64,000 nt of DNA from Patescibacteria group bacterium (lineage in GTDB: Bacteria > Patescibacteriota > Patescibacteriia > 2-01-FULL-39-33). Below the pieces are notes generated by a model. It saw only the letters and a program-made list of their open reading frames with translations, ran no database searches and was not told the DNA's origin. The stretch is taken from contig JBAZMW010000002.1 of NCBI GenBank assembly GCA_041649575.1, positions 1,934-65,933 of the forward strand. The letters are read 5' to 3'. The position numbers and the translations under genes are program-made. Shown here piece after piece: positions 14,169 to 62,645 of the stretch (the stretch's first letter is position 1; the number at the start of each line of letters is the position of its first letter).

Positions 14169-14185
14169 CGAACTGAAATTATTTA

Positions 14186-14215: not shown

Positions 14216-14230
14216 TGTTAATCAGGTTTT

Positions 14231-17094: not shown

Positions 17095-18237
17095 ATGAGC
17101 AAAATTCTCATTTTTTCCCTGGCCTATCATCCTTTTGTCGGCGGGGCTGAAGTGGCTATCAAGGAAATCACCGAGCGGCTGGCTGGCGAGTTTGAATTTG
17201 AAATGATCACTGCCAATTTGGACGGTCGGCAAAAAGAATTTGAAGAGAATTTTAACGGCCTTAGCAAGATTTATCGTCTTGGCAAAAGAAAATCAGATAA
17301 ATATTTTTTTCCTTGGTTGGCCTGCCGCAAAGCCGTTGAGCTGCACCGGCAGAGTAATTATCAGATGATTTGGGCGATGATGGCCAACCAGGCCGGCTGG
17401 GCCGCTCTGAAATTCAAGAAGAAATTCCCACAAGTTCCATATTTGCTCACTTTGCAGGAAGGGGATAGCGAATGGGATATCTGGCGGCGGACATTTTTGA
17501 TTCGGCCTATTTACAAAGCGATCTACAAAAAAGCTGATTATATTCAGGCTATTAGTAATTTTCTAGCCCAGCGGGCGAAGAATTTGGGAGCTAAGTGTCC
17601 GATAGAAGTGGTGCCGAATGGAATAAGTAACGTCATTGCGAGCGAAGCGAAGCAATCCCATATTTTTAAAAATAAAGATTTAAAGAGAGTTATAACAGTT
17701 TCCAGGTTGGTTAAAAAAAATGGCCTGGAGGATTTAGTAAAAGCCATGGAATTAGTTAATAAAGATTATGACAAGCCAGTCGTTCTAAAAATAATTGGCG
17801 ATGGAGAATTAAAATACAAATTAGAAAAAGCAGTTAATTATTCAAAAATAAAAGACAAAATTGCATTCTTGGGAAAAATAAATAATGAAAAAGTTTATGA
17901 ATATTTGGCTCAAGCCGATATTTTTGTTCGGCCGTCATTGTCTGAAGGGTTGGGTAACGCTTTTTTAGAGGCTATGGCTTGTGGCGTGCCGGTCATTGCC
18001 ACTCCGGTTGGCGGTATTCCCGATTTTTTGAAAGACGGCGAAACTGGCTGGTTTTGCGAGGTAAGAAACCCCAAAAGCATTGCCGAAAAAATAAAGTATA
18101 TTTTTGATGAGGAAAATAAGGAAGAAGTTGACAGGGTGGTCAAAAGTGCCAAAAAGATGGTAGAAGAAAATTATAATTGGGAAAAAATCAGTTTGGACCT
18201 GAAAAAAATTTTTAACCATTTAATAAACCAAGAATGA
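17095..18237 (+). CDS. GT4-family glycosyltransferase.
   Basis: EGLGNAFLEAMACGVPVIATPVGGIPDFLKDGETGWF. GT-B N-terminal half with the LAYHPFVGGAEV motif. Confidence 0.85.
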   Translation: MSKILIFSLAYHPFVGGAEVAIKEITERLAGEFEFEMITANLDGRQKEFEENFNGLSKIYRLGKRKSDKYFFPWLACRKAVELHRQSNYQMIWAMMANQAGWAALKFKKKFPQVPYLLTLQEGDSEWDIWRRTFLIRPIYKAIYKKADYIQAISNFLAQRAKNLGAKCPIEVVPNGISNVIASEAKQSHIFKNKDLKRVITVSRLVKKNGLEDLVKAMELVNKDYDKPVVLKIIGDGELKYKLEKAVNYSKIKDKIAFLGKINNEKVYEYLAQADIFVRPSLSEGLGNAFLEAMACGVPVIATPVGGIPDFLKDGETGWFCEVRNPKSIAEKIKYIFDEENKEEVDRVVKSAKKMVEENYNWEKISLDLKKIFNHLINQE

Positions 18238-19646
18238 GAAAAGAAGTTTTGCTAATTTGTCCTCATTCCGCGCTGGAAATTTTTAAGGAATCGAAAATTA
18301 GCATCGTTATTCCCCATATCCCGTATGTATCACTGGCCAGTTTGGCTGGCGCTCTCTTGGCTGGCGGGCACGGCGTTCATATCTTGGATTTAAGTATTTC
18401 TAAAAACCCCCTGGTTGATTTGGAACAAAAACTAAAAGTTTATCAGCCGGATTTTGTGGGCGTCACTTTTACCACCGGTTTGTGCAGCGAGGCGGCCGCT
18501 ATCGCCAAGAAAGTCAGGGAGCTTTGCGGCCTGGCAAAGTTGATTGCCGGCGGCGCGCACCCGTCGGTTTTTCCGGCCGAGCCGATTGAAAAATACGGTT
18601 TTGATTTTTCGGTTTTTGGCGAAGGCGAGCTTACTTTGTCGGAATTGGTTTCCGGCCGCGATGTTTCTGCCATAGACGGTCTGGCTTATCGCGGGGCCGA
18701 CGGCCAGGTTGTCATTAATTCTCCCCGCGCTCTCATTGGCGATTTGGACGATCTGCCCCCTCCGGCCTATCAGCTTTACAACGCCAAAAATTATCACAGC
18801 CCGAAAGTCGCTTCACGCCGGAGCCCGGTGGCCGCCATTGAGACCAGCCGTGGCTGTCCCTACAGCTGTATTTATTGCAACAAACACATTTTTCAGACAA
18901 AATTTCGTGCCAAGTCGCCCCGACGAGTGGTTGACGAGATGGAAATCCTCTTAAACCTTGGCTACAAGGAAATTCACGTTTGGGACGATTGCTTTTCCGC
19001 TGATTTAAATCACGCTAAAGGCGTTTGCGACGAGATTGTCAGGCGCGGCGTCAAAGTCAACTGGAATGTCTATAATGGCATCAGGGTTGACCGCGTGGAT
19101 GAGGAGTTGCTTTGCAAACTTATGGCCGCGGGCTGCTACCGTCTAAGTTTTGGCATTGAATCGGGCGACCAGGCGGTTTTGAACTTGTCTCAGAAGGGAA
19201 TCACTTTAGAACAAATCAAAAACGCTGTTCGTTTGGCCAACCAAGTCGGCATAGAAACCCTTGGATTTTTTATGGTCGGTTTGCCCGGCGAAACAAAGGA
19301 GACCTTTGAAAAGACCGTTGCCTTGGCCAAAGAATTAGATTTGGATTTGCCCAAAATCGCCATTGCCACGCCACTGCCTGGTACTAAATTTTTCGATGAT
19401 TGGCGGGAAAAGGGTTTGATTAAGTCCTATAATTGGCCCGATTACGTATTGCATACCAAAAAAAGAGTAGCCAGTCATCCCAATATCGGCGATGAAGAAA
19501 TGTTTAAATATTATAATTTATTTTACCGGCAGCTGTATTTACGCCCGAGTTTTATTGCGAAAAGATTTTGGCGAGGACTAAGAACCGGAGAGATATTTTT
19601 TGATATCTATTATTTTTTGAAGGTTTTTATTGGCTTTAAATGGTAA
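18234..19646 (+). CDS. Cobalamin (B12)-binding domain radical SAM protein (class B radical SAM).
   Basis: N-terminal Rossmann-like B12-binding domain (VLLICPHS...GVTFTT...IAGGAHPSVFP). Radical SAM cluster SRGCPYSCIYCNK (CX3CX2C). ATGA overlap with the upstream gene. Confidence 0.85.
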   Translation: MRKEVLLICPHSALEIFKESKISIVIPHIPYVSLASLAGALLAGGHGVHILDLSISKNPLVDLEQKLKVYQPDFVGVTFTTGLCSEAAAIAKKVRELCGLAKLIAGGAHPSVFPAEPIEKYGFDFSVFGEGELTLSELVSGRDVSAIDGLAYRGADGQVVINSPRALIGDLDDLPPPAYQLYNAKNYHSPKVASRRSPVAAIETSRGCPYSCIYCNKHIFQTKFRAKSPRRVVDEMEILLNLGYKEIHVWDDCFSADLNHAKGVCDEIVRRGVKVNWNVYNGIRVDRVDEELLCKLMAAGCYRLSFGIESGDQAVLNLSQKGITLEQIKNAVRLANQVGIETLGFFMVGLPGETKETFEKTVALAKELDLDLPKIAIATPLPGTKFFDDWREKGLIKSYNWPDYVLHTKKRVASHPNIGDEEMFKYYNLFYRQLYLRPSFIAKRFWRGLRTGEIFFDIYYFLKVFIGFKW

Positions 19647-19666
19647 AAGTATAAATTCATTCTACC

Positions 19667-21067
19667 GTGATGTTAAAGTTTTTTAAAAAATATAAAATAG
19701 AAATCATCTTATTGGTGGTTTCTCTTTTGGCCCATTTCTTTTTCTTTTTTTTGTTGTTGCACAACTACGGCCATAATTTTCCCTACGACACCAATGAAGA
19801 TGCGGCGGAATTTTTTACTATTAGTAAAAACATTTATTTTCATGGGGCTTTTTCCAGCGAGCCGGAGCTGATACAATATCCAAACAGTTTGCGTACCCCG
19901 CTTTACCCGGCTTATTTGGCTGGCTTCAATATTTTCACAACCAGTCCTTTATTGCCGATAATTCTACAAAATATTCTGGCCGCTTTGGCCGTGGTTTTGG
20001 TTTATCGCCTGGGTCTGTTGGTAGTAAAAAACAAAACCATCAGCTGGCTGGCCGCTTTGTTGTTTGCCCTCGACCCGCTTGCTAATTATTGGGCCAATAT
20101 CACCGAGCCGGATACCTTGCTGGTAGTGGCGACTCTGGTGGTTTTGGTTTCATTTTTCAAGTTTCGCGACAGCGGCCAGTTAAAATTTCTGGCCCTCACT
20201 AGTTTGTTCTTGGGTCTGTCGATTTTAATCAAACCGGTGGCGCTTTATTTCCCCATTTTCTTTGTCCTGATGATTATCGGGGACGCGTTTTTTAAAAAAC
20301 AGCTGCCAAAAGGAATCAAATGGTCGGCGATTTTTTTGGCGATTACATTTTTGGTGGTCGCGCCGTGGCTGGGGCGCAATTATTCAAGGTTCGGCGTTTT
20401 CTCTGTTTCGTCTATTTCCGGTTACAATCTCTATAGTTACGCCGCTGTCGTTGGTCCTTACCCGCAAGAGGTAAAAGATTATTTAGTGGAGGTGAAAGAA
20501 AAATACGGCCAGTTTGGCCAGAATCGTAATGGCGAGCGCGATCTGCGGGCGCAAAAAAAATTCAAAGCATTGGCGGTCAAAATAATTATGGCCAATCCGA
20601 TCGTTTATGCCAAGGCGCATGTCCTGGGCATGGCCAGATTTTTTTTGGACGACGGTCATAAGGAAATTTTTTACAACCGGCACTACAGGGCGATGCTGAT
20701 TTATAATACGCCCGAGCCGACTGACAAGCCGGATATCACCGGTGAATTTAAAAAAGGCAATTTCGGCGTCATCTGGACCACGATAAAAACCGCCAATTGT
20801 TATACGGTAATCTATTTTATTTCCAAATTAATTTATTTTTTGGCCTATCTCCTGATTCTTTTCGGCTTGATAACTTCTGGCCGGCGTGACAAAAAAATGT
20901 TTGGCGCCTTTTTATTTTTACTGTCGTTGGCCTTTTTCATTGCTTTGGCGGCCGGGCCTTATGGTCCGTCTGTTCGTTATCGTTTGCCGGTTCTGCCCGG
21001 TCTGCTCTTGGTGATGGTCTATGGTTTTATGAGTTTGAAAAAAATCAAGAATCCAACAATAAAATAA
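19667..21067 (+). CDS. GT-C-fold membrane glycosyltransferase (PMT_2 / ArnT-like).
   Basis: About 11 TM helices. N-terminal loop FPYDTNEDAAEFFTISKNIYFHG...LRTPLYPAYLAGF typical of GT39/GT83 relatives. Confidence 0.6.
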   Translation: MMLKFFKKYKIEIILLVVSLLAHFFFFFLLLHNYGHNFPYDTNEDAAEFFTISKNIYFHGAFSSEPELIQYPNSLRTPLYPAYLAGFNIFTTSPLLPIILQNILAALAVVLVYRLGLLVVKNKTISWLAALLFALDPLANYWANITEPDTLLVVATLVVLVSFFKFRDSGQLKFLALTSLFLGLSILIKPVALYFPIFFVLMIIGDAFFKKQLPKGIKWSAIFLAITFLVVAPWLGRNYSRFGVFSVSSISGYNLYSYAAVVGPYPQEVKDYLVEVKEKYGQFGQNRNGERDLRAQKKFKALAVKIIMANPIVYAKAHVLGMARFFLDDGHKEIFYNRHYRAMLIYNTPEPTDKPDITGEFKKGNFGVIWTTIKTANCYTVIYFISKLIYFLAYLLILFGLITSGRRDKKMFGAFLFLLSLAFFIALAAGPYGPSVRYRLPVLPGLLLVMVYGFMSLKKIKNPTIK

Positions 21068-21097
21068 TCGTCTCTAAACTAAAAATATTTTCCGATT

Positions 21098-22525
21098 ATG
21101 TCTGGTCAGGTTGAAGAAAAATTTATTATTTTAGGTGCTGGGCCGGCGGGTCTGGCGGCTGGTTATGAGTTGGCAAAAAACGGTAAAAAAGTTGTTTTGA
21201 TCGAAAAAGACGACGGCGTCGGCGGATTAAGCCGGACCAAAAAATATCAGGGTCATTATTTTGATTTAGGCCCTCATCGTTTTTTCACCAAGAATAATGA
21301 AGTGGAATCACTCTGGCGGGCTTTATTGGGCAATGACTTTTTGGAATTGCCGCGTTTGACACGGATTTACTACAAAAAAAATTTTTATCATTATCCGCTT
21401 CAGCCGGTGGACGCTTTGTATAAACTGGGATTAGTCAGGTCGGTCTGGGTGATCGGCAGCCTGCTCAAGACAAAATTCAAAAACTTATTTTTTAGAAAAC
21501 CAGAGGCGAGCTTCGAAGATTGGGTGACTAATCGTTTCGGCAGTAAATTATTTTCTATATTTTTTAAGAGCTATACCGAAAAGTTATGGGGCATCAGCAC
21601 TCGTGATTTAGGAGCGGATTGGGCAGTCCAGCGGATCAAAAACCTATCATTAATTTCAGCGATTAAAAATGCCATTTTTGGCGATGAACACGGTAAAGTA
21701 AAGTCGCTGATTGAGAGATTTAATTATCCAAAGCGTGGCGCTGGTATGATGTATGAAAAAATGGCCGAGAATATCAAAAAATTGGGCGGAGAAATTATTT
21801 ATAATGCTAACGTCAAAAACATTTTACATGACGAAGACAAAGTCAGTGGCGTGATAATCGAGGATCAGAGCGGTGAGCGCCAAGTCGCCGGTGATTACAT
21901 CATTTCCAGTTTGGCGCTAAACGACATGATTAGAGCACTGTCTCCCTTGGCTCCGGAAAATGTTTTACGCGCGGCCGAAAATTTACGCTTTCGCTCGTTG
22001 GTCATTGTCTATTTGGTGGTCGAAGCGTCACAAGTCTTCCCGGATAACTGGGTTTATGTTCATGAGCCGGATTTAAAGGTTACCCGCGTCCAAGACACGA
22101 GCAGTTTTGGCCCATACCTGTCCGAGAATAAAAACCAAACCATGGTTTGCTTGGAGTATGCTTGCTGGTCTGGTGATGCCCTGTGGAGCCAGTCTGACGA
22201 TGAGTTGGTGGAAATGGGCAAAAGAGACATCGCTGCCATGGGGCTTTTGGGCGGCTCAAGGATTTTGGACGGTTTGGTCGGACGCATCCCTTATGCTTAT
22301 CCGGTTTATGCTTTCAATTACGAAGATAATTTGAAAATAATTTTTGATTATTTAGGCCAGTTTAAAAATTTTCAAACCGTCGGCCGGTCTGGCTTATTCC
22401 ACTACAACAACATGGACCACTCCATTTTGACTGGCATTTTCGCCGCCAGGAATTTCATGGGCTCAAACTACGATGTCTACAAAGTCAATGCCGAAGCCGA
22501 TTATCACGAATGCAAATTACCATAA
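21098..22525 (+). CDS. FAD-dependent oxidoreductase (amine-oxidase / protoporphyrinogen-oxidase-like; possible UDP-galactopyranose-mutase relative).
   Basis: ILGAGPAGLAAGYELAKNGKKVVLIEKDDGVGGLSRT dinucleotide-binding motif, then GPHRFFT. 475 aa. Confidence 0.65.
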   Translation: MSGQVEEKFIILGAGPAGLAAGYELAKNGKKVVLIEKDDGVGGLSRTKKYQGHYFDLGPHRFFTKNNEVESLWRALLGNDFLELPRLTRIYYKKNFYHYPLQPVDALYKLGLVRSVWVIGSLLKTKFKNLFFRKPEASFEDWVTNRFGSKLFSIFFKSYTEKLWGISTRDLGADWAVQRIKNLSLISAIKNAIFGDEHGKVKSLIERFNYPKRGAGMMYEKMAENIKKLGGEIIYNANVKNILHDEDKVSGVIIEDQSGERQVAGDYIISSLALNDMIRALSPLAPENVLRAAENLRFRSLVIVYLVVEASQVFPDNWVYVHEPDLKVTRVQDTSSFGPYLSENKNQTMVCLEYACWSGDALWSQSDDELVEMGKRDIAAMGLLGGSRILDGLVGRIPYAYPVYAFNYEDNLKIIFDYLGQFKNFQTVGRSGLFHYNNMDHSILTGIFAARNFMGSNYDVYKVNAEADYHECKLP

Positions 22526-23265
22526 ATATGGATCAAAAAAAAGCTGGTATAAATTTTAAAAAAGGCAAATTGGTCTCTGGTGTTATTTATCCTTCGTTTT
22601 TTCCCATTACCAAAGAAGACCTGGTGCTTAATATTGGTTGCGGCGATGGAGTGCAGGCCGTGGTTTATGGCGGTAATTTCAAGGAAATGGTTGGCGTTGA
22701 TATTAACGAGAAAAGTTTGGCCACAGCCGTGGCAGTGATGGATTATTATGGTATAAAAAATTTCAAATCGATCGGTGGTAATGTCGAAAAAATTCCGCTT
22801 AACGATCGGTTTGATAAGGCAATAGCCATCGACATTATTGAACACGTTATTCATCCAGAAAAAGTAATTGGAGAAATAAGAAGATTGCTTAAGGATAATG
22901 GGCGGCTACTGATGACCTTTCCAGCCATGCATGATAAATGGGAGCGTTTCTTCCGTTTGGTGGGTCAAAAGATTCTGCGGCGCCGGAGCCAGGCCGCCAG
23001 CAAAAACGGCTGGAACCCGGATCGGCACCAACATGATTATTCGCTCAAGAAATGGCTGAAATTGCTCCAGCACGGCGGTTTTAAATTGGTGAAGTCGCGC
23101 GCCAGCACCATGTGGCCGCCGCTGCATTATTTGGGTCTGCCAAAATTTTGGTTTTCCAGTAAAATTATCAGAACAATTGATGGGTTCTTTTGCCGGTTGC
23201 CAATTGTTAAAAATTTCGGTCAAGCATTGGTTTGCGAATTCATAAAAGACAACAAACATGAATAA
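22510..23265 (+). CDS. Class I SAM-dependent methyltransferase (Methyltransf_11-like).
   Basis: LNIGCGDGVQAV (motif I). IAIDIIEHVIHPEKVIGEIRRLLKDNGRLLMTFP (motif II / post II). Confidence 0.75.
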   Translation: MQITINMDQKKAGINFKKGKLVSGVIYPSFFPITKEDLVLNIGCGDGVQAVVYGGNFKEMVGVDINEKSLATAVAVMDYYGIKNFKSIGGNVEKIPLNDRFDKAIAIDIIEHVIHPEKVIGEIRRLLKDNGRLLMTFPAMHDKWERFFRLVGQKILRRRSQAASKNGWNPDRHQHDYSLKKWLKLLQHGGFKLVKSRASTMWPPLHYLGLPKFWFSSKIIRTIDGFFCRLPIVKNFGQALVCEFIKDNKHE

Positions 23266-24418
23266 GTTGAAAAAACAAAATCAGAGCATTATCATTGCCG
23301 CTGATATTTTTCCGCCGGACATCGGCGGCCCGGCAACCTATAGTCAAAAAGTTGCCGCCGAATTAAAAAACAAAGGCTGGCAAGTCAAATTAATTTGCTA
23401 TAGTGATAAAAAGATTAAGGATGATCTCGGTTTTCCGGTTTATAGGATTATTCGAGGCAAATTTGCGCCTTGGCGCTATCTAAAATACTTTTTAAAGTTA
23501 TGCCAACTGGCTAGAGGCGTTGACATAATTTACGCCATGGGTCCGGTGGCCGCTGGCTGGCCGGCGTCTTGGGCGGCCAAATTACTAGGCAAGAAGCTTG
23601 TTGTAAAGATAGTCGGCGATTATGCCTGGGAGCAGGCCAGAAATTTGAAGTTGACGGATTTGGGCATAGATGAGTTTCAGACGAAAGACTGGCATGGCAA
23701 AACTGGTCGGTTGAAAAGAATTGAGACCCGTGTTTGTTTCAAGGCCGATAAAGTTATTACCCCGAGTGAGTATTTGAAAAAAATTGTGAAAGGCTGGAGC
23801 GTAGAAGAAAATAAAATTCAAGTGATTTATAATGCTATTGAATTAAAAACCGTTGAGCCGATATTAAAACAGGAAAATGAAAGGTGGTTGATTTCTGTGG
23901 CTCGTTTAGTTCCCTGGAAAGGAATTGATACAATAATTAAATTAATGCCAGAGATAATAAAAGAAATACCAAACTTGAAATTTATAGTTATTGGTGATGG
24001 GCCGGAAAAACCAAAACTTCAAGAGATTATCCACTCTTTTGGATTAGAAAACAGCGTCAGATTGATGGGTTTAATGACTCATGGGGATACTTTAAAATAT
24101 ATTTGCGCCAGTGACTTGTTTATTCTAAATAGCGGCTATGAAGGATTACCTCACGTTTTAATAGAGGCTTTATCGTGCAACGTGCCTGTTGTCGCTAGTG
24201 ATGTGGGTGGCGTTTCCGAGGTTATATATTGTAATGAACTTGGGTTAATTTTCAAATATAATAATGAAAGAGAAATTTTGAAAGTAATTTTAGACTTTTT
24301 TAAAACAGGAGCCAAAAGTGATTGGTTATTAAAATCAAAAGAAAGGACTTCTTTCTTTGAACAATTTTCTTTCCCCAATATGATAAATAAAACCGAAGAA
24401 TTATTAAAAAATTTATGA
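23258..24418 (+). CDS. GT4-family glycosyltransferase.
   Basis: EGLPHVLIEALSCNVPVVASDVGGVSEVI. 8-nt overlap with the upstream gene. Confidence 0.85.
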   Translation: MNKLKKQNQSIIIAADIFPPDIGGPATYSQKVAAELKNKGWQVKLICYSDKKIKDDLGFPVYRIIRGKFAPWRYLKYFLKLCQLARGVDIIYAMGPVAAGWPASWAAKLLGKKLVVKIVGDYAWEQARNLKLTDLGIDEFQTKDWHGKTGRLKRIETRVCFKADKVITPSEYLKKIVKGWSVEENKIQVIYNAIELKTVEPILKQENERWLISVARLVPWKGIDTIIKLMPEIIKEIPNLKFIVIGDGPEKPKLQEIIHSFGLENSVRLMGLMTHGDTLKYICASDLFILNSGYEGLPHVLIEALSCNVPVVASDVGGVSEVIYCNELGLIFKYNNEREILKVILDFFKTGAKSDWLLKSKERTSFFEQFSFPNMINKTEELLKNL

Positions 24419-28784: not shown

Positions 28785-28785
28785 G

Positions 28786-33145: not shown

Positions 33146-33151
33146 TTTTTT

Positions 33152-34891: not shown

Positions 34892-34951
34892 GGTTTTTGT
34901 GTTAAAGTAGCCTAATAAATTAGAAGGAAAAAGCCATAAAAATAAGCGATT

Positions 34952-36724: not shown

Positions 36725-36730
36725 ACTTTT

Positions 36731-37603: not shown

Positions 37604-37608
37604 TAATA

Positions 37609-38373: not shown

Positions 38374-38383
38374 TAAAAATAAA

Positions 38384-39040: not shown

Positions 39041-39046
39041 GAAATA

Positions 39047-40462: not shown

Positions 40463-40481
40463 TAAAAAATTGGTTTTTTAA

Positions 40482-41975: not shown

Positions 41976-41977
41976 AT

Positions 41978-43165: not shown

Positions 43166-43200
43166 AAAAAGTCAAAACTTGAGAATTAAAAAGTAAACCG

Positions 43201-50325: not shown

Positions 50326-50329
50326 AAAG

Positions 50330-51346: not shown

Positions 51347-51347
51347 T

Positions 51348-52337
51348 TTATTTTTTTTGCCAAAAAAAGAAGATGTCTGCGTACATATTCCAAACATCAC
51401 ACTTGGCGCAGATGGAAATCTGGTCATACTTACCTTGAAGATGAAGTTGCCTATATTTTTTTATCAATTCTGAATTCCAAATTTTATTAACGGTTTGGTC
51501 ACTGGCGTTTCCCAAGACGCCCACTCTGGCTAGGTCGTCGCAACAAATGGAGACATCGCCGTTAAAATGGACAGCCGGGGAAAACCACAGATGATAACAA
51601 GGATATCTTTTGTGATTTTTTCTGACATGGCTTTTTGCCACGTTGCCGCCATAATTGTGTTGGTCTCGCAGTTCGATGATGACTTTTTCGTTTTGCCATT
51701 TGGAAATGAAGTTTTTTGCCTGCGATTGCGTGTCATCGTCAACAATCATCCGGACAAAAATTTTTGGTTTTGCCGCCCGCCCCTTAATTTTTATCAGCTC
51801 TTTGACGTTTTTTTCCACTTCATCTAGTTTGTCCACCCCGGTTTTTTCGCGGTAGGTTTGCGCTTCCGGGCTTAGGAAACTAATGGAAACCTTGTCAATC
51901 CCGATTCTAACAATCTGTTCTGCGATGGTCGGAGACAGTAGAGATCCGTTGGTGGTTAAGGAAATGCTGTTTCGCCGATTTTTTTCTTTGATGTATTTGG
52001 CCATCTCCATGAGCCGTGGGTTAATCAGCGGTTCACCAGACAAATGGAGAGAAAAATTTCTCGGGCCATAATTGGCCGCCTCATTAACTATCTTTTTAAA
52101 AAAATCAAAATCCATACTACCGATCAGGGTTTTGCCGGTTATCCGGGCGCAGATGCGGCAATTGAAATTACAAACAGAGGTCGATTCCAAAAAAATATGT
52201 TGAGGGAAATCATAATTGATCATCCTTTGGACAAAGACTTTTTTAAACCAGCTAAGAGGCGGGAAATTACTCCAATCATCTAGTTTTTTGACGTTGATTT
52301 TAGAATTTAGATAGCTGAAAAAATCATTTTTAGTCAT
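51348..52337 (-). CDS. Radical SAM protein with a C-terminal SPASM-like domain.
   Basis: ESTSVCNFNCRICAR cluster. C-terminal ...CCDDLARVGVLGN...ICAKCDVW. Convergent with 50330-51346; the two stops are separated by 1 nt. Confidence 0.8.
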   Translation of the reverse strand: MTKNDFFSYLNSKINVKKLDDWSNFPPLSWFKKVFVQRMINYDFPQHIFLESTSVCNFNCRICARITGKTLIGSMDFDFFKKIVNEAANYGPRNFSLHLSGEPLINPRLMEMAKYIKEKNRRNSISLTTNGSLLSPTIAEQIVRIGIDKVSISFLSPEAQTYREKTGVDKLDEVEKNVKELIKIKGRAAKPKIFVRMIVDDDTQSQAKNFISKWQNEKVIIELRDQHNYGGNVAKSHVRKNHKRYPCYHLWFSPAVHFNGDVSICCDDLARVGVLGNASDQTVNKIWNSELIKKYRQLHLQGKYDQISICAKCDVWNMYADIFFFWQKK

Positions 52338-54727
52338 GGAGATGGGTTTATTTTTTTAAAAGGCACTGGTTTAAAGATGGTCATAATTGCTCCCCATAAG
52401 CTGGTTAGGATAAAATTAAGCAGAATAATTTCAGATAGTAGTACCAGTGATTCAGTGGATTTTACCAGCGGCCCCAAAAGAATAATAAGCGCGGCCTCTC
52501 TGGTGCCGATACCCAGAAAAGATATGGGCAGCAGGCTTAGAAAGGAAGCGATCGCGACAGAGGTTATCAGTTCAGGAAAACTGACGACGGTTAAATTTAT
52601 AGCCTGGCCGAAAAAGTAAATCTGTCCCGAATAAATTACCCAAGAAAGAGCCGTGATCAAAAATCCTATAAAATACGTTTTGTAATTGTAGGTTTTTAGG
52701 CCGGTTTTAAAACTATTAATCTCGCTAGTCAGGCCAGCAGGCATCAGCCGATAAAATATTTTTTCAATAAATTTTCTAAAAAATTTATTTTTTATGGCCA
52801 GCAGCGCCGCCAGAATCAGCAGGATGATTACAAGGTAGAGTAGAAAGAATTTTTCCAAATAACGACTGAAAAAGAAAATCAAACCAACTAAGCTAAATAG
52901 TAGTAAAAAAAATAAATCAAACAATCTATCCATAATAACGCTTACCAGAGACTCTCCTGATTTATAGCCTTTGGCTTTCAAATAATAAATTTTGATCAGT
53001 TCGGCGATCCGGCCGGGCGTAACGGAAGCAAAACCCAAGGCCGCGATATAGATTTTAAATGATTCCATTATTTTGTAAACAATGCCTTGTTTTTTCTTAA
53101 GATAATTCCAACGCCAGGCCCTTACAAAAAGGTAAGGAACAGTTAAAAGCATGCCGAATAGCATAAGGGCATAGTTCATGGTTTTTAAAAGCTGGATCGT
53201 GGCCGTCCAGTTGATTTCCTTGGCAATAATAACAACCAGAACCAAACTAATTAGAAAATAATATTTTTTGGAAATAGTTTTCAACGGCCGATAAAAGGGA
53301 GAGTTTTTAATGATCAATTTCAAAAGCTTGATTCCCGCCCGTAAATTATTTTTTAAATTATTCCAACTGCGCAATTCTAAAATTCTTCTTAAAATATAAC
53401 GTGGCGCAAGGTAATATGAGCGGTAGGCGGCAATCACCATGGAAAACAGTTCCTTTCGGGAAAAAGTTTCGTCCCAAACCGGCGGCAGAAAATCTGGTTT
53501 AGGGTCGAGCGCGAATTTTTGCCAGAAATCTTCTTTAAAAACGCCTTCTTTTTTCCCCATTAGATATAAATCAGTAGCCGCGGGAAACAAGGTTAGCACA
53601 GAAAAGTGGACATAGTCGGGAAAAAGTTTTTTGGCTAATTTGATCGTTGCTTTGATATCGGCTTCAGTTTCATGAGGCGAACCGATCATAAAATACCCGG
53701 CCGTTTCTATGCCCGCCTTTTTCGTCAGGGCAAAAGCCTTTTTGACCATGGGCATAGAGATATCTTTTCTTAATATTTTGAGGATTTTTTCCGTACCCGC
53801 TTCAACACCGTAGTGGATTCTGGTGCAGCTAGCCTTTTTCATTAATTTTAACAACTCTTCATCCACGGTGTTGACCCTAGCTCTCACATCCCAATTTATT
53901 TTTAATCCCTTTTGGATAATGAGGCGGCAGATATCTATCACTCGTTGGCGGTCAATGGTAAAAGTGTCGTCGTAAATGAAGATTTCTTTAATGCCTAATT
54001 TTTTTATCTCTTCCATTTCCGCGACCACATTGGGAGCGCTCCGAGCCCTGAAAGCCTTGCCCATGTGCGGCCGATCGCAGAACAGGCATTGGTAGGGGCA
54101 GCCACGCGAGGTGAACATAATGGTCGTGGGATTTTTCTGGGCTACTATGGAGTAATATTTTTTGTAAGGAGTGAGTTCTCTGGCTGGAAAGGGCAAAGAA
54201 TCCAAATCTTGAATTAATTCCCTTTTTCCAGTATTGATAATCTTCCCACCTTCCTTAAAAATCAGTCCTTTGATGTTTTTTGTTTTTTCCGGATTATCAA
54301 GATTATCAAGTAATTCGGCTAAGGCTATCTCGCCTTCACCTACCACCAGATAGTCAACAAAATCGTTATTAATGGTTTCTTCTGGATAAAGATAGGTATG
54401 AGGTCCGCCCAATATTATTTTTATCTGCGGGTTGGCTTTCCTCACGGCCTGGGCGATTAGGTAAACATCGATTAAGGAAAAAGTCAAAACCGTGATGCCG
54501 ATTGCATCAGGATCCTCGGCCACAATCCTGGAAACAATTTCCTCATTGCTGATGTCCTCCATCGGACAATCCAGCACTTTTACCTGGTGAGGAGTATTTT
54601 TTTGTAGGTAGCCGGCCAAATATAAAAGACTTAGAGGCGGTAAAAAATCCATGCCCGATTCCAGTTCTTTGGGCATGTCGCTTTCAATTATTTTGGCGAG
54701 CGGCGGGTTAATTAAGAGTATTTTCAT
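52334..54727 (-). CDS. Fusion protein: B12-binding radical SAM domain (aa 1-~470) plus a C-terminal flippase-like membrane domain (UPF0104 / lysyl-PG-synthase-TM-like).
   Basis: MKILLINPPL. TSRGCPYQCLFCDRPH. C-terminal ~310 aa with ~8 TM helices and the repeated VTPGRIAE / GIGTREAAL motifs typical of PF03706-type flippase-like domains. Confidence 0.75.
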   Translation of the reverse strand: MKILLINPPLAKIIESDMPKELESGMDFLPPLSLLYLAGYLQKNTPHQVKVLDCPMEDISNEEIVSRIVAEDPDAIGITVLTFSLIDVYLIAQAVRKANPQIKIILGGPHTYLYPEETINNDFVDYLVVGEGEIALAELLDNLDNPEKTKNIKGLIFKEGGKIINTGKRELIQDLDSLPFPARELTPYKKYYSIVAQKNPTTIMFTSRGCPYQCLFCDRPHMGKAFRARSAPNVVAEMEEIKKLGIKEIFIYDDTFTIDRQRVIDICRLIIQKGLKINWDVRARVNTVDEELLKLMKKASCTRIHYGVEAGTEKILKILRKDISMPMVKKAFALTKKAGIETAGYFMIGSPHETEADIKATIKLAKKLFPDYVHFSVLTLFPAATDLYLMGKKEGVFKEDFWQKFALDPKPDFLPPVWDETFSRKELFSMVIAAYRSYYLAPRYILRRILELRSWNNLKNNLRAGIKLLKLIIKNSPFYRPLKTISKKYYFLISLVLVVIIAKEINWTATIQLLKTMNYALMLFGMLLTVPYLFVRAWRWNYLKKKQGIVYKIMESFKIYIAALGFASVTPGRIAELIKIYYLKAKGYKSGESLVSVIMDRLFDLFFLLLFSLVGLIFFFSRYLEKFFLLYLVIILLILAALLAIKNKFFRKFIEKIFYRLMPAGLTSEINSFKTGLKTYNYKTYFIGFLITALSWVIYSGQIYFFGQAINLTVVSFPELITSVAIASFLSLLPISFLGIGTREAALIILLGPLVKSTESLVLLSEIILLNFILTSLWGAIMTIFKPVPFKKINPSP

Positions 54728-56166
54728 TTATTTTTTGGCTTTGGTTTAAATAGAATTCGTCCTAATATTAGCATACCCAAAAATACGGTTTTTATTCCGT
54801 CCCAGGAATTAAGTTGTTTTAATTTGCGAATAATATATTTTGGTCTGAGATAAAACTCGCGGAAGGCTCTTTTTTGCCAATAGACTAGATCGGCTGGCGT
54901 CAGGCTTCTCTGAACCGGCAGAGGCGCCGTATTGCTTAAAGGAGCGAATCTTTCCCAGGGGGTGTCTTTGGAAATAAGGCCTTCTTTTTGGGCGTAGTAG
55001 TACAAATCAGAGCCAGGCACGGGACAGGTGATGAAAAAAGTGGCGTTATCTAAATCTAGGCTTTTGGCAAAATCAATAGTTTCTCTTATGGTTTCTTCGG
55101 TTTCGCCAATATTGCCGAGCATGAAACTGGCGTGCGCCAAGATGCCGTGGCGTCTGGCGATACTGATGGCGCGTTTTCCAATCTCGGTGGTAGTTTGTTT
55201 GCGCATCAAGCTTAGCACTTTTTGCGAGCCCGACTCCAGCCCAAAAGATATTTTTTTGCATCCGGCTTTAGCCATTATTTCCGCCAGTTCGTCGCTGATT
55301 GTATCGGCTCTAGAGGAACAGATCCAGGCGATGGGCAGTTTTTTGTCAATTATTTTCTGGCAGATTTCAAATGCCCTGGGCCGGTTTAAGGTAAAGTTAT
55401 CATCCAAGATGTTAAATTCTTTGATGTTGAATTTATTAATGCATTCTTCGATCTCCGCAATAACGTTGTCAGCGCTCCGGTATCGCAGGCGACGTTGCCA
55501 AATACTTTTGGAAACACAATGCACACAATCGAAGTTGCAACCTCGGCTGGTTTGTAAGGGGGAACACTGTTCCTCGGTCAGTTTCTTGGTGGGAGCGGAA
55601 TAATATAATTTTAGGTCGAATAAATCACGGGCAGGAAAGGGGATATCGTCTAAATTTTGAATCATCTGGCGGGGCGGGTTGTTTATTATTTCCCCCCGGC
55701 GTTTAAAGTATAAACCGTTTATTTTTTCAAAATCGGTTTTTTTATCCGAAAGAGTTTTAACTAATTCATAAAAAGTTTCTTCTCCCTCACCAATGACCGC
55801 AAAGTCGACGTAAGGATTACTCATCACTTCTTGAGGTAAGATGGTGGGATGAGTGCCGCCAAGAACCGTGACACAATTTAATAATTCTAAGTCTTCTTTA
55901 ATGATCCGGCAGATTTCGAGAACATGGTTAATCGTCGGCGAGAGGCAGGTGAAGCCGACGATATCTGGTTTTTCCTTGGCCAAAAAATTTTTTATTTCTT
56001 CATAGCCCAAGGCCATGGCTTCCGTGTCGAGGATTTTTATTTCACAGTCGATTTTGGCACGCAAATAGCCGGCCAGGTAGGCCAGATTAAACGGCATGGC
56101 GTGGCCGCCAGATTCTTTCATGCCCTCGAAGTTTATGTAGGGAGGGTTAACAAGTATGATCTTCAT
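54724..56166 (-). CDS. B12-binding domain radical SAM protein.
   Basis: MKIILVNPPYINF. TSRGCNFDCVHCVSK. ATGA overlap with the downstream gene. Confidence 0.85.
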   Translation of the reverse strand: MKIILVNPPYINFEGMKESGGHAMPFNLAYLAGYLRAKIDCEIKILDTEAMALGYEEIKNFLAKEKPDIVGFTCLSPTINHVLEICRIIKEDLELLNCVTVLGGTHPTILPQEVMSNPYVDFAVIGEGEETFYELVKTLSDKKTDFEKINGLYFKRRGEIINNPPRQMIQNLDDIPFPARDLFDLKLYYSAPTKKLTEEQCSPLQTSRGCNFDCVHCVSKSIWQRRLRYRSADNVIAEIEECINKFNIKEFNILDDNFTLNRPRAFEICQKIIDKKLPIAWICSSRADTISDELAEIMAKAGCKKISFGLESGSQKVLSLMRKQTTTEIGKRAISIARRHGILAHASFMLGNIGETEETIRETIDFAKSLDLDNATFFITCPVPGSDLYYYAQKEGLISKDTPWERFAPLSNTAPLPVQRSLTPADLVYWQKRAFREFYLRPKYIIRKLKQLNSWDGIKTVFLGMLILGRILFKPKPKNK

Positions 56167-56184
56167 ATGCTTTTGATTTTTATT

Positions 56185-57015
56185 CTAAAGATTATAATTT
56201 TCTATTGACAGGCAGTCAAAATTTTTTAAAACGTAATTTAATTTTTTCCAAGTTTTTTGCGCCTGGCCGTATTTGATGATTTTTCTAATTTTAGGCATCT
56301 TGAAATCAGGCGGCTCGCCCAGAAAATCAAAAGGGTGGAAATAAAGACAGGCTGGATTGTTTTTAAGTTTGAGCCGAAGCAATTTTCTAAACACGAACCA
56401 GGGGATAATTCTTAAATAGACACCACCCGCAATGGGAATTCTTATTAGCTTACCGTCAAAAACAGCCAAGGGCATTTCTTTGATGCCGTTTATCTGGTAA
56501 GGGTTGATTTCCCCTTTTTTGTGGCCGTAATTTCTGCTTTTAAAAAATTTAAAAATAAAGTTTGGCAGACTAAAAGGGAATAGAGAAGAATCAAACTTGA
56601 TACCTTTTGACGCCAGCACAGGTAGTGCCCAAAAAGTAGAAGAATCCAAAGAAAAATTGACAGCGCGGTGGCTGACCGGTCTTTTGCTGGTCAGGGCTGT
56701 AATCTTGTCCACCAAAATTTCTATTTCTTTTTTAAAGTTGTCGGAATTTTTCTGCCAAAGCGGCCGGTGATCCAGGGAGTGCAGGCCGATTTCTTGACCA
56801 GCGTCATTTATTTTTTTAATTAGGTTTGGCTCGTTTTCTATAACTTTTCCGGTCACAAAAAAAGTGGCCGTTGCTTTGTTATTTTTTAATAGCGGTAGAA
56901 TTTTTTCCGTAAAGCTTTCCAGGTTTTCCCGTTCGTTGCCCTTAAGATATCTTTGCAAAGACAAAGATTCAAACCAATATTCCAGGTCAAAAGTTAGAAT
57001 TACTGGATTCATCAC
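56185..57015 (-). CDS. Polysaccharide deacetylase-family protein (CE4-like, DUF3473-type; ArnD-like).
   Basis: ILTFDLEYWF. TATFFVTGKVIENEPNLIKKINDAGQEIGLHSLDHRPL. Confidence 0.6.
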   Translation of the reverse strand: MMNPVILTFDLEYWFESLSLQRYLKGNERENLESFTEKILPLLKNNKATATFFVTGKVIENEPNLIKKINDAGQEIGLHSLDHRPLWQKNSDNFKKEIEILVDKITALTSKRPVSHRAVNFSLDSSTFWALPVLASKGIKFDSSLFPFSLPNFIFKFFKSRNYGHKKGEINPYQINGIKEMPLAVFDGKLIRIPIAGGVYLRIIPWFVFRKLLRLKLKNNPACLYFHPFDFLGEPPDFKMPKIRKIIKYGQAQKTWKKLNYVLKNFDCLSIENYNL

Positions 57016-57902
57016 TGGCGGTTGTTAATTTCTCTTCTAATAGCGGCAATCTGATCGGCCAAAAGACCAAAGAAAAAGACGAGAATAGACGCAATAAAGA
57101 GGAAAATGGTGCTGTCGGAAAGATTTATAGAAATAAGATCAAAAGCCAGGAAAATTAAAGCGACTATAAATAGAATCAGGCTGACCGGAAAAAAAATACG
57201 TAGCGGAGAAAAAGTCATAATCAGACGGAAAATCAGCATTAAAGTAGTGAAACCATCGCGCGGTTTGACCGTGCTTTTGGAACCACCCTCTCTTTTGTTT
57301 ATTTCAATAGGCAGAAATTTAACATTTTTTTTGTCTTTCAAAAAAGCCAGGGTAGAAGTGGTGGACATGGAAAAACCATTAGGCATCAGGTGCAAGTAGT
57401 TTTTAAGAATATTTTTTTTGACCAGGCGTAAGCCGCAGTTTAAATCAGGGATTTTATAATCCACCAGGTAATTGGCAACAACTCTCAGCAACCACAGGCC
57501 TGGTTTTCGCAGAGTCGGCCTGACATATTTGCCGCCAGTCCGATCGCCAGCGATTAGTTCATAGTCATTAATATGAGCGATAAAGTTTTTTATATCTTCA
57601 GGACGATGTTGGCCGTCGGAGTCAAAAAATAAAATCCAATCATGCCCCGAATTAAGGACTCCGGTTTTCAGGGCGGCACCATAACCTTTGTTGTAGGGAT
57701 GGTTTATTAGTTTTATACCTTCAATTTTATTTAGAACTTCTTTGCTATCATCTGTCGAACCGTCATTTATAACAATAATTTCATGTTCTATTCCCAGACC
57801 AATAAGTTCTTTTTTAAGCATTTCCACTGTTTGCTGGACTTTTTGACTTTCATTGTAGACTGGAACGACTACAGATAAATTTATTGTTTGATTGTTTTCC
57901 AT
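57012..57902 (-). CDS. GT2 polyprenol-phosphate glycosyltransferase with C-terminal TM helices (ArnC/GtrB-like).
   Basis: LSVVVPVYNESQKV...IVINDGSTDDS...NKGYGAALKTGV...FFDSDGQH. Two C-terminal TM helices. Confidence 0.85.
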   Translation of the reverse strand: MENNQTINLSVVVPVYNESQKVQQTVEMLKKELIGLGIEHEIIVINDGSTDDSKEVLNKIEGIKLINHPYNKGYGAALKTGVLNSGHDWILFFDSDGQHRPEDIKNFIAHINDYELIAGDRTGGKYVRPTLRKPGLWLLRVVANYLVDYKIPDLNCGLRLVKKNILKNYLHLMPNGFSMSTTSTLAFLKDKKNVKFLPIEINKREGGSKSTVKPRDGFTTLMLIFRLIMTFSPLRIFFPVSLILFIVALIFLAFDLISINLSDSTIFLFIASILVFFFGLLADQIAAIRREINNRQ

Positions 57903-57910
57903 AAATATTT

Positions 57911-59269
57911 TTATCTCCCTCTGCCTCCCAACGCCACCTTAATGGTTTTAAGTAAAATACTTAGATCCATCAGCAGCGAACGGTTTTTTATATAATATAA
58001 ATCATATTTAACTTTTTCCAGAGATTCTTCCTTGGAGCCGCCATAAGCCGGTCCGTTGAGTTGGGCCCAACCGGTAAGCCCAGGCTTCACCAGCAGCCGT
58101 TCCCTGTAAAAAGGCACCTCTTGGGCCAAAATTTGGATAAATTCTGGTCTTTCTGGCCTAGGCCCGACCAGACTCATTTCTCCTCGTAAGATGTTAATTA
58201 ATTGGGGGATTTCATCCAGCCTGGTTTTACGCATTAATCTGCCGAAACGAGTCACTCTCGGATCGTTTTCACTGGCCCATTGTGGCCCGTTTTTCTCGGC
58301 GTTATCAAACATCGAGCGGAATTTCATGGCCAAAAAATTTTTACCGTTTTTGCCAACGCGTATTTGCTTAAAGACCACCGGTCCCGGACTTTCTAATTTT
58401 ATGATCAGAGCTATTGGCGGCGCGATAAATATGGCCACTAGCAGGCCGAGTAAAGCCAGAAAGACATCCATGATTCTTTTGCTGATCTCATAAAGTTTTT
58501 TGGAATGTTCGGCCAAGTTTTCCAAAAACCAGCTGTGTTCCAGATATTCAGCCGGCACTTTATTGGTTATCTGCTCGTAAAAGCTGTTGATATTATAAAC
58601 ATCAACGCCTAGCGACAAACAGTCGAAGATTTTTCGCGAGATTTCATCATTATTTTTTAAACTATTGGCGCTGACCAGGATATCCACCTGGTTTTCTTGG
58701 CAATATTTTTTTAAATCTTCGGGAACATTTTGGTTGTTTATGGCTTGATACCCTAGTTGCGGCTTATGATTTATCTCTCTGATTAACGAATCAGCCAGCG
58801 GTGATTGACCAATGATCAGCACCTTATTGCTAATGGCCGAGGATTTTATAAAGGTATAGAATATCCGACGCCACAAAAAAGAGAAAACCAAGGAAATAAT
58901 CACATCTATCGCAAGGACTCTTTGCGGTTTAATACTTCCTAGAAAAGGATTGAAAAAATAAAAAATAGCTATAGCTATCAGAATGTTTATAACATAAACA
59001 CGAACTAGCAGATTTAACAGGTTGTTTATATTATAACTTATTTTTAAATCATAAAGCTCGTTAATAAAAAAAACCAATAACCAGATAACAAAAACCACAG
59101 TAAACATAATTACATGTCCTGACCAGAAATAACCGATGTCCTTTAGGCCGTATCTGATAATTAAGGTCAAGTATAAACCTAGATATAAAGTGGCCAGGTC
59201 GCCTAACAAAAGGATGACCTTTTTTGTTTTAATAAAGAAATTAGCCATAATTTTAAGCGATAACTTCAA
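57911..59269 (-). CDS. Polyprenyl-phosphate glycosyl-1-phosphate transferase (WbaP / bacterial sugar transferase family), the initiating enzyme.
   Basis: C-terminal Bac_transf domain: SPGPVVFKQIRVGKNGKNFLAMKFRSM...DPRVTRFGRLMRKTRLDEIPQLINILRGEMSLVGPRPERPEF. Four N-terminal TM helices. Track start is TTG 59269; ATG 59248 is an alternative. Confidence 0.85.
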   Translation of the reverse strand: MKLSLKIMANFFIKTKKVILLLGDLATLYLGLYLTLIIRYGLKDIGYFWSGHVIMFTVVFVIWLLVFFINELYDLKISYNINNLLNLLVRVYVINILIAIAIFYFFNPFLGSIKPQRVLAIDVIISLVFSFLWRRIFYTFIKSSAISNKVLIIGQSPLADSLIREINHKPQLGYQAINNQNVPEDLKKYCQENQVDILVSANSLKNNDEISRKIFDCLSLGVDVYNINSFYEQITNKVPAEYLEHSWFLENLAEHSKKLYEISKRIMDVFLALLGLLVAIFIAPPIALIIKLESPGPVVFKQIRVGKNGKNFLAMKFRSMFDNAEKNGPQWASENDPRVTRFGRLMRKTRLDEIPQLINILRGEMSLVGPRPERPEFIQILAQEVPFYRERLLVKPGLTGWAQLNGPAYGGSKEESLEKVKYDLYYIKNRSLLMDLSILLKTIKVALGGRGR

Positions 59270-61067: not shown

Positions 61068-61083
61068 TTTTTTTGTGCTGCTT

Positions 61084-61554: not shown

Positions 61555-61619
61555 CCGCCGACTTGTTTTTAAAGGCGTTTTTTTATATAATAAGGGCAAC
61601 AAAACTTAACCCATAATTT

Positions 61620-62630: not shown

Positions 62631-62645
62631 AGTTTTTTATAAAAT

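Follow-up and report, generated by a model that had tools for sequence, protein, structure and literature searches.

Very little is known of the surface chemistry of Patescibacteria (candidate phyla radiation, CPR), bacteria that live attached to other cells. What is assembled by a patescibacterial locus in which close to one third of the genes encode radical S-adenosylmethionine (SAM) enzymes, and on which substrates would these enzymes act? The locus is located on a 235-kb metagenomic contig of a Patescibacteria metagenome-assembled genome (ENA ERZ27247363); “the window” denotes the whole stretch of 64,000 nucleotides that was analyzed, and the region in question spans its positions 17095–59269. 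A first-pass annotation had described this region as a glycosylation island for a heavily C-modified (probably C-methylated or rearranged) glycan or glycoconjugate. Our analysis suggests, with middling confidence, that the locus directs the assembly of an envelope glycoconjugate and that its class B-type radical SAM enzymes tailor membrane-anchored polyprenyl phosphate or polyprenyl diphosphate sugars. The share of radical SAM genes implies envelope glycans modified at unactivated carbons, as well as a substantial demand for iron–sulfur clusters, and probably also for scavenged cobalamin, in very small genomes.

Radical SAM enzymes and their glycosylation partners

The window contains 52 open reading frames (ORFs) of at least 150 amino acids, and all large ORFs were scanned with Pfam. 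Region 17095–59269 comprises 35 genes, ten of which code for radical SAM enzymes, eight of them of the B12-binding type:

18234–19646 (+): B12-binding radical SAM enzyme (Pfam); CPYSCIYC at residue 208; best NCBIfam match HpnJ, 197 bits (cut-off 578)
27270–28784 (+): B12-binding radical SAM enzyme (Pfam), likelier start at ATG 27285; CPYRCTFC at residue 198
29858–31336 (+): B12-binding radical SAM enzyme (Pfam); in other genomes, its orthologues carry a fused class I methyltransferase
39047–40462 (+): B12-binding radical SAM enzyme of a cross-phylum clade paired with family 2 glycosyltransferases (Pfam, NCBIfam, model)
40482–41975 (+): B12-binding radical SAM enzyme, the most divergent of the eight (Pfam)
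45139–46593 (+): B12-binding radical SAM enzyme, opening a second conserved module (Pfam)
50330–51346 (+): radical SAM enzyme with a seven-cysteine, SPASM-like C-terminus and a weak DUF3463/HpnH-like match (Pfam, NCBIfam)
51348–52337 (−): radical SAM/SPASM enzyme (Pfam), kept at the operon end in other Patescibacteria
52334–54727 (−): fusion of a B12-binding radical SAM enzyme (residues 1–480) with a LPG_synthase_TM/flippase-like domain of eight transmembrane segments (Pfam; TIGR00374)
54724–56166 (−): B12-binding radical SAM enzyme (Pfam)

All eight enzymes named as class B in the first-pass annotation match both PF02310 (B12-binding, 56–79 bits; cut-off 32.1) and PF04055 (Radical_SAM, 64–99 bits; cut-off 29.5), and each contains one CxxxCxxC motif within residues 198–221. 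The N-terminal domains are indeed of the B12-binding type. In agreement with this, the AlphaFold model of 39047 (predicted local distance difference test score, pLDDT, 87.3; predicted template modelling score 0.88) superposes over both domains on AprD4, TsrM, QCMT, OxsB, CysS and TokK with template modelling (TM) scores of 0.67–0.76, AprD4 being the top structural match (0.75); this full-length superposition indicates that the class B architecture is real. By sequence, the closest solved proteins are AprD4, QCMT (PDB 9ccb; PMC12931638), OxsB, TokK, CysS and TsrM, while a sequence search of solved structures with 40482 gave no match below 1e-6. What holds of the earlier label “cobalamin-binding” is the domain and fold match, which suggests cobalamin use by the eight enzymes; binding itself does not follow from it, since AprD4 and ArsL homologues have the class B fold but do not bind cobalamin (PMC12931638). 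The annotation had also predicted SPASM-like tails for the other two enzymes. The 51348 protein (−) scores above the Pfam SPASM threshold, and 50330 (+), albeit without a SPASM match, ends in a C-terminus with seven cysteines that includes a CxxCxxxCxxxxxC motif, its match to DUF3463 being sub-threshold.

The eight paralogues share 24–37% pairwise identity, indicating ancient divergence rather than recent tandem duplication; 39047 and the N-terminal part of 52334 are 58% identical. All eight possess cationic, amphipathic C-terminal tails that suggest attachment to the surface of the membrane. The membrane domain of 52334 matches the “flippase-like domain” family TIGR00374 with 72.6 bits (cut-off 43.2).

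The partner genes are those of glycan assembly. By Pfam, region 17095–59269 encodes seven glycosyltransferases (GTs) of family GT4, three of GT2, one of GT9 and two PMT_2 proteins of the GT-C type; 48601 is an additional GT-C protein, recognized by its fold. Also present are four class I methyltransferases, two deacetylases of carbohydrate esterase family 4 (CE4), a Wzx flippase, a Bac_transf protein passing TIGR03025, a flavin adenine dinucleotide (FAD)-dependent oxidoreductase, a nitroreductase-family protein and two polytopic membrane proteins without family match, one of them 48601. The classes named in the first-pass annotation, including the WbaP-like initiating transferase, are confirmed except for its count of about eight GT4 enzymes, the eighth of which (14231, −) is encoded outside the region, as is the fourth GT2 of the window (62698). 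Additions to that annotation are the C-terminal membrane domain of 52334, the nitroreductase-family gene, the FAD oxidoreductase and a protein with 12 transmembrane segments (33152). From 17095 to 51346, 29 co-directional genes form one array in which no gap exceeds 60 bp; stop/start overlaps are frequent, many of them joining a radical SAM gene to one for a glycosyltransferase. The remaining six genes, on the minus strand, converge on this array. The clustering of the radical SAM genes is clearly not due to chance.

The functional locus is larger than the region itself, extending to upstream genes at 6164–15379 and downstream genes at 61075–63360; the latter, together with the upstream Wzy_C gene, are syntenic in related genomes. 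It contains a Wzx/Wzy-type set of phosphoglycosyl transferase (TIGR03025 above cut-off), Wzx (Polysacc_synt) and Wzy_C, and Pfam and NCBIfam scans of the window proteins gave no chain-length regulator. GT-C enzymes and small flippases as in three-component glycosylation systems are likewise present (four PMT_2 proteins, 48601 by fold, GtrA and the TIGR00374 domain). Partner genes of the locus include the following:

9731–12055 (+): Wzy_C protein (O-antigen ligase/polymerase-like) with TPR tail (Pfam); adjoins the phosphoglycosyl transferase in other Patescibacteria
36731–37603 (+): GtrB/ArnC/DPMS-like GT2 with two C-terminal transmembrane segments (Pfam, NCBIfam, structures including GtrB 5ekp)
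43201–44538 (+): Wzx-type flippase, Polysacc_synt/MATE (Pfam)
46594–47352 (+): CE4 polysaccharide deacetylase (Pfam)
48601–50325 (+): membrane glycosyltransferase of GT-C fold, without Pfam match (model and Foldseek)
56185–57015 (−): CE4 deacetylase with DUF3473 (Pfam, NCBIfam)
57012–57902 (−): GtrB/ArnC-like GT2 with C-terminal transmembrane segments (Pfam, NCBIfam)
57911–59269 (−): polyprenyl glycosylphosphotransferase, pathway-initiating by family (Pfam; TIGR03025, 372.7 bits, cut-off 295.6)
61075–63360 (+): GtrA-like small membrane protein, nucleoside diphosphate (NDP)-sugar epimerase/dehydratase and PpgS-like GT2 (Pfam, NCBIfam; syntenic in related loci)

The GT2 proteins 36731 and 57012 have two or three C-terminal transmembrane segments. 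Their best NCBIfam matches, all below cut-off, are AglJ, dolichyl phosphate (Dol-P) hexose transferase, PpgS, ArnC and PgfS, and their nearest solved structures, aligned over the full length, are GtrB, ArnC and DPMS; 36731 is thus a putative polyprenyl-phosphate sugar synthase. The 48601 family was seen only in Patescibacteria, and its sequence profile did not match any PDB entry. The model (pLDDT 88.4) retrieved AglB, PglB and STT3 as top Foldseek matches (E = 4e-8, TM-score 0.53), followed by ALG9/12, ArnT, DPY19 and PMT, indicating that 48601 is a GT-C glycosyltransferase, a class which uses lipid-linked donors. A CE4 deacetylase gene adjoins a radical SAM gene in both conserved modules described below.

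The GT2–radical SAM pair in other genomes and further genes of the window

A homologue search with 52334 returned thousands of relatives of about 470 amino acids, the named ones mostly from Patescibacteria; the same radical SAM–flippase fusion was seen in only one other sequence cluster. For a scan of one genome per species, the 39047/52334 clade was used as seed, since the eight paralogues together gave too divergent an alignment. The scan found 490 relatives. The best 80 of them, to which the following locus counts refer, are 47–82% identical, and the ORFs of their loci were annotated with the window's own proteins. Within the Patescibacteria they belong to Buchanan-, Kuenen-, Portnoy-, Yanofsky-, Nealson- and Falkowbacteria; the others are from Ca. 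Brocadia and other Planctomycetota, Anaerolineae/Chloroflexota, Nitrospirota and DPANN archaea. Across these groups, identity within the clade amounts to 47–58%.

In 62 of these 80 loci, representing at least five phyla, a GT2 gene of the 36731/57012 type precedes the radical SAM gene on the same strand by no more than 4 kb; a contig end truncates nine further loci. In Planctomycetota, the stop of the GT2 gene abuts or overlaps the start of the radical SAM gene, and the pair sits amid housekeeping genes, followed by a class I methyltransferase gene or a GT2–methyltransferase fusion; the best NCBIfam match of this GT2 is AglJ. The conserved unit outside the CPR consists of the GT2 and the radical SAM gene, sometimes with a methyltransferase gene. 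A GT-C protein was dropped as a member of the cross-phylum cassette, the apparent PMT_2 neighbours in Planctomycetota being TPR-only proteins among housekeeping genes. In two Iainarchaeum (DPANN) loci (L050 and L062), a homologue of 50330 (214–216 bits) directly follows the GT2–radical SAM pair, which links the 50330-type enzyme to the cassette. The pair provides a defined entry to a large unexplored group of B12-type radical SAM enzymes, with orthologues in anammox bacteria, which are amenable to enrichment culture.

In Patescibacteria, the pair is part of an operon comprising genes for the phosphoglycosyl transferase, GT2, (nitroreductase, methyltransferase), CE4 deacetylase, B12-type radical SAM enzyme, LPG_synthase_TM protein and SPASM radical SAM enzyme. 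Beside it lies a second module with a 45139-type radical SAM enzyme, (a CE4 deacetylase), a GT4 and a 48601-type membrane protein. In 11 loci, the gene immediately downstream encodes a stand-alone LPG_synthase_TM protein equivalent to the C-terminal domain of 52334. Orthologues of 29858 (54–70% identical) occur in dozens of Patescibacteria sequence clusters and are fused to a class I methyltransferase in at least six, mirroring the order 29858, GT4, methyltransferase 32465 of the window.

The region is not a one-off island but an instance of a recurrent type of patescibacterial locus. A 22-kb stretch of a 958-kb Patescibacteria contig (L082) encodes six B12-type enzymes and one of the SPASM type, and its gene order is syntenic with that at window positions 17095–43165: its first half reads GT4, radical SAM, GT4, radical SAM, GT2, methyltransferase, GT4, CE4, GT4, radical SAM–methyltransferase, and its second half GT4, methyltransferase, GT2, radical SAM, a PMT_2–radical SAM–SPASM fusion, radical SAM, radical SAM, GT9. 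Another locus (L084) has kept the glycosyltransferase scaffold with a single B12-type enzyme; at 12802–14248 and from 21430 onward, its glycan operon has inserts coding for VTC-domain, DUF4956 and CotH/beta-helix proteins in place of the radical SAM genes of the window. Radical SAM density is 0.23–0.42 per kb in related loci and 0.237 per kb here. The number of B12-type enzymes varies from one to eight on a common glycosyltransferase scaffold, a pattern expected of accessory tailoring enzymes.

Radical SAM enzymes are fused to three kinds of partner, namely a flippase-like transmembrane domain (52334), PMT_2 in a PMT_2–Radical_SAM–SPASM protein of 854 amino acids, and a class I methyltransferase (719–727 amino acids):

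52334–54727 (−) of the window: radical SAM fusion
16111–18675 of L082: radical SAM fusion
Proteins P0194, P0208, P0214, P0216, P0222 and P0223: radical SAM fusions

Conserved gene pairs and fusions strengthen the predicted link between the radical SAM enzymes and glycan assembly.

Further genes of the window are listed below; they are mainly glycosyltransferases and methyltransferases.

6164–9715 (+): two PMT_2 (GT-C) membrane glycosyltransferases, the first with TPR tail (Pfam; 9–10 predicted transmembrane segments)
14231–15379 (−): GT4 (Pfam)
17095–18237 (+): GT4 (Pfam), stop overlapping the start of the next gene
19667–21067 (+): PMT_2 GT-C (Pfam; 10 transmembrane segments)
21098–22525 (+): FAD-dependent oxidoreductase, amine-oxidase fold (Pfam; NF005548, 588 bits, cut-off 389)
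22510–23265 (+): class I SAM methyltransferase (Pfam)
23258–25530 (+): two GT4 (Pfam)
25527–26234 (+): short GT2 without transmembrane segments, Dol-P hexose transferase-like (Pfam, NCBIfam)
26231–27292 (+): GT4 (Pfam)
28786–29865 (+): GT4 (Pfam)
31333–32484 (+): GT4 (Pfam)
32465–33145 (+): class I SAM methyltransferase, MetW/NodS-like, counterpart of the domain fused to 29858-type enzymes (Pfam)
33152–34891 (+): 579-residue membrane protein, about 12 transmembrane segments predicted, no Pfam or NCBIfam match
34952–36724 (+): PMT_2 GT-C (Pfam)
37609–38373 (+): class I SAM methyltransferase (Pfam)
38384–39040 (+): nitroreductase-family flavoprotein, best match BluB, below cut-off (Pfam, NCBIfam)
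41978–43165 (+): GT9, heptosyltransferase-like (Pfam, NCBIfam)
44522–45142 (+): class I SAM methyltransferase (Pfam)
47330–48604 (+): GT4 (Pfam)

The nitroreductase 38384 scores 82 bits with BluB (cut-off 150), the synthase of 5,6-dimethylbenzimidazole, which is the lower ligand of B12. Both here and in no fewer than nine other loci, its gene immediately precedes that of the 39047-type enzyme, and the protein could be a reductase partner or cofactor-related. The 12-segment membrane protein 33152 showed no detectable relation to the 48601 family. A 284-residue protein similar to UDP-glucose/GDP-mannose dehydrogenases (15452–16306, +) has the NAD-binding and central domains and lacks the C-terminal one. 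The protein of 1291 residues encoded at 1361–5236 (+) has a single hydrophobic segment, at its N-terminus, and matches no Pfam family; it may belong to the cell surface and could be a target of glycosylation. An S8 subtilase gene (59367–61067, +) separates the phosphoglycosyl transferase and GtrA genes; the arrangement of S8, Wzy_C and transferase genes is also found in the Patescibacteria loci L009, L010, L013 and L019. A 191-residue ORF (55028–55603, +) antisense within the radical SAM gene 54724–56166 is almost certainly spurious.

Possible substrates and chemistry of the radical SAM enzymes

Pairing with GT2, adjacent CE4 deacetylases, fusions to flippase-like and GT-C domains and the cationic tails argue for action at the cytoplasmic face on lipid-anchored sugars. 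The modified glycan proposed earlier fits the assembly genes, but the evidence points to lipid-linked sugar intermediates rather than the finished polysaccharide as substrates. The locus would then combine a Wzx/Wzy-type pathway with three-component branches (GT2, flippase, GT-C), with a radical step between loading and flipping. The phosphoglycosyl transferase would prime the lipid carrier, and soluble GT4, GT9 and GT2 enzymes would extend the glycan at the cytoplasmic face, while in a parallel branch the GtrB/ArnC-like GT2 proteins would load single sugars onto polyprenyl phosphate. The CE4 deacetylases would probably expose an amine, and unactivated carbons of the lipid-linked sugars would be modified by the radical SAM enzymes, in some cases jointly with class I methyltransferases. 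The flippase-like domain, GtrA and Wzx may carry the products across the membrane, for transfer or polymerization outside the cell by the GT-C enzymes and the Wzy_C protein.

Several observations weigh against this assignment. None of the ten radical SAM enzymes reaches an NCBIfam equivalog cut-off, and the lipid acceptor of the GT2 proteins is likewise predicted by homology below curated cut-offs. The closest solved relative of several paralogues, AprD4, does not bind cobalamin; an Rfam scan of the window revealed no RNA family and no cobalamin riboswitch, nor was a cobalamin transporter identified in the window. Moreover, 18234, 27270, 29858 and 40482 adjoin genes of soluble GT4 enzymes, and these four could equally act on undecaprenyl diphosphate-linked oligosaccharides or on nucleotide sugars.

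The chemistry is a separate matter. GenK, GenD1 and MoeK5 C-methylate sugars. Most characterized class B enzymes are methylases, but no known feature of sequence or structure separates the non-methylating members from them (PMC12931638). Whether the enzymes of the locus methylate, contract a ring in the manner of HpnJ or catalyze another reaction cannot be told from sequence, and the “probably C-methylated” product of the first-pass annotation does not follow, all the more since the top families of most paralogues, HpnJ and BchE, are non-methylases. We give C-methylation an edge, by analogy, solely on the ground that it is the most frequent among the known reactions of the class. The best partial NCBIfam matches of 18234, 39047, 45139, 52334 and 54724 are to HpnJ and BchE, with scores of at most 228 and 244 bits, respectively, and HpnJ is the top named family for 18234, 39047 and 52334 (197–228 bits, nearly full length). 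The cut-off of HpnJ (TIGR03471) is 577.6 bits, as compared to 87–228 bits for the window paralogues and 239–242 bits for the Planctomycetota orthologues, and that of BchE (TIGR02026) is 481 bits, the highest score in the window being 244. Membership in HpnJ, BchE, HpnI and HpnL was rejected on the curated cut-offs. Among the 50 window ORFs scanned for a hopanoid context (shc, hpnH/G/I/K), only analogous gene types were found, and scans of the window for chlorophyll genes were negative. Given these low scores and the lack of such genes nearby, a BchE-like tetrapyrrole pathway or a hopanoid pathway does not explain the locus. The best matches of 27270 and 29858 are to ApyD (146–179 bits; cut-off 750), an enzyme in the biosynthesis of RiPPs (peptides made by the ribosome and modified after translation), and that of 40482 is to a ladderane-associated lipid radical SAM model (95 bits, below cut-off).

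These scores leave room for a non-methylating core clade (39047, 52334, possibly 54724 and 45139) that would convert a lipid-linked hexosamine to a carbocyclic or otherwise rearranged head group by HpnJ- or Cds-like ring contraction or another rearrangement. We regard this as doubtful. In its favour, HpnJ is the best named family not only for three window enzymes but also for the Planctomycetota orthologues (197–242 bits); all gene types of hpnH-I-J-K-L have counterparts (HpnH-like radical SAM enzyme, GT2, B12-type radical SAM enzyme, deacetylase, and LPG_synthase_TM, the membrane family which we take to include HpnL); sugar-acting non-methylases, AprD4 and OxsB, are among the nearest structures; and the separate class I methyltransferases accompanying the radical SAM genes could supply methyl groups conventionally. 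However, the HpnJ scores are less than half of the cut-off and about equal to those of BchE, no HpnI or HpnL model was matched, HpnK belongs to the YdjC family and not to CE4, and a ring-contracted sugar, no longer being a glycosyl donor, fits poorly with the many GT-C transferases; the prevalence of methylases in the class also speaks against it. It is improbable, in our estimate, that the enzymes act instead on soluble nucleotide sugars and thereby provide unusual (C-methylated, deoxygenated or epimerized) NDP-sugars to the neighbouring GT4 enzymes. The genes 18234, 27270 and 29858 do directly follow soluble GT4 genes with overlapping stops and starts, and with a single NDP-sugar epimerase/dehydratase in the window, unusual precursors would need another source. 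Yet the fusions to flippase-like transmembrane and PMT_2 domains, the cross-phylum pairing with a membrane-anchored GT2 of the predicted polyprenyl-phosphate type and the amphipathic cationic tails point to membrane-bound substrates, and we know of no class B radical SAM enzyme that acts on an NDP-sugar.

Membrane association as deduced from the tails would also suit enzymes that methylate or cyclize the hydrocarbon of the polyprenyl carrier or of scavenged lipids, as do HpnP/HpnR, GrsA/B and Hgm, the glycosyltransferases being mere neighbours. Many lipid-modifying radical SAM enzymes are of the B12-binding class (PMC13459092; bioRxiv 10.1101/2023.10.20.563219), and the top score of 40482 is to a lipid model. 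All scores are far under the cut-offs, though, and the conserved coupling is to GT2, deacetylase and other glycosyltransferase genes rather than to lipid-synthesis genes; a deacetylase would have no role in tail modification, and we consider this explanation very unlikely. Still less credible is the modification of a peptide or protein, in a RiPP-like pathway or in the maturation of a surface glycoprotein. ApyD is the best match of 27270 and 29858, SPASM enzymes typically mature peptides, and an S8 protease and large secreted proteins are encoded nearby, but the ApyD scores are remote from the cut-off, and the absence of gaps above 60 bp in 17095–51346 leaves no room for a precursor gene. No peptide-related family, leader-recognition domain, precursor or RiPP-type transporter/protease pair was detected in the window, and the partner genes are glycosylation genes in every phylum examined.

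Tailoring of lipid-linked sugars may be extended to a broader proposal, namely that the GtrB-like GT2 and the B12-type radical SAM enzyme form an unrecognized two-gene cassette of several phyla which performs radical chemistry, possibly HpnJ- or Cds-like ring contraction or a C-alkylation not known from any glycosylation pathway, on a polyprenyl-phosphate sugar, and which was expanded in Patescibacteria to up to eight paralogues per locus, so that many residues of the glycan would be radically rearranged or C-branched. In this complete form the proposal is speculative and rather unlikely.

Comparison with known systems

The enzyme class, its role in sugar tailoring and lipid-linked glycosylation as such are already known; what is new is that they are combined in an envelope locus, that the enzymes are so numerous, and that a GT2–radical SAM cassette is shared across phyla. 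A search of the full-text literature, in which subscription papers are mostly not included, gave no description of B12-type radical SAM enzymes from glycan loci of the CPR or of cobalamin-dependent enzymes from loci for O-antigen or capsule, and none in which a polyprenyl-phosphate sugar is the substrate of a radical SAM enzyme.

Hopanoid tailoring is the closest functional analogy. In this pathway, the GT2 HpnI adds N-acetylglucosamine to the lipid, the deacetylation is carried out by HpnK, and contraction of the ring is ascribed to HpnJ (PMC13459092). The hpnI/K/J/L/H genes represent the same gene types, acting on a lipid-anchored amino sugar, and HpnJ is the best named family for the core clade. 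In contrast to the hopanoid genes, the GT2 of the locus resembles GtrB, ArnC and AglJ rather than HpnI, its deacetylases are of the CE4 and not of the YdjC type, eight paralogues take the place of one HpnJ, and the context is one of Wzx, Wzy and GT-C proteins, with no squalene-hopene cyclase or other hopanoid gene in view. Calditol synthase (Cds), set beside the locus by description only, likewise is a radical SAM enzyme acting on a lipid-linked hexose, which it is proposed to convert to a carbocycle (PMC13459092); its homologues, however, have been reported mainly from acidophilic archaea.

In enzyme architecture, the locus resembles the natural-product systems of GenK, GenD1, MoeK5, AprD4 (a precedent for deoxygenation) and OxsB, whose genes are also interleaved with those for glycosyltransferases, N- and O-methyltransferases and amino-sugar chemistry. 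Those enzymes occur singly or in pairs in secondary-metabolite clusters of Actinobacteria and share about 20% identity with the enzymes of the locus, whereas here eight are encoded in a Wzx/Wzy-type envelope locus of a bacterium with a reduced genome. The systems GtrA/GtrB/GtrC, ArnC/ArnD/ArnT and PpgS/Rv3779 combine a polyprenyl-phosphate GT2 with a small flippase and a GT-C enzyme, the latter two being shared with the locus, whose GT2 proteins are putative enzymes of this type, and the Arn system has in addition a CE4-type deacylase, ArnD, which acts on a lipid-linked sugar. None of these three-component systems is known to include a radical SAM step, whereas at this locus the GT2 and the flippase-like protein have a B12-type radical SAM enzyme between them, which is even joined in one protein with the flippase-like part. 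If its substrate is a polyprenyl-phosphate sugar, a radical step would be added to the scheme of lipid-linked glycosylation.

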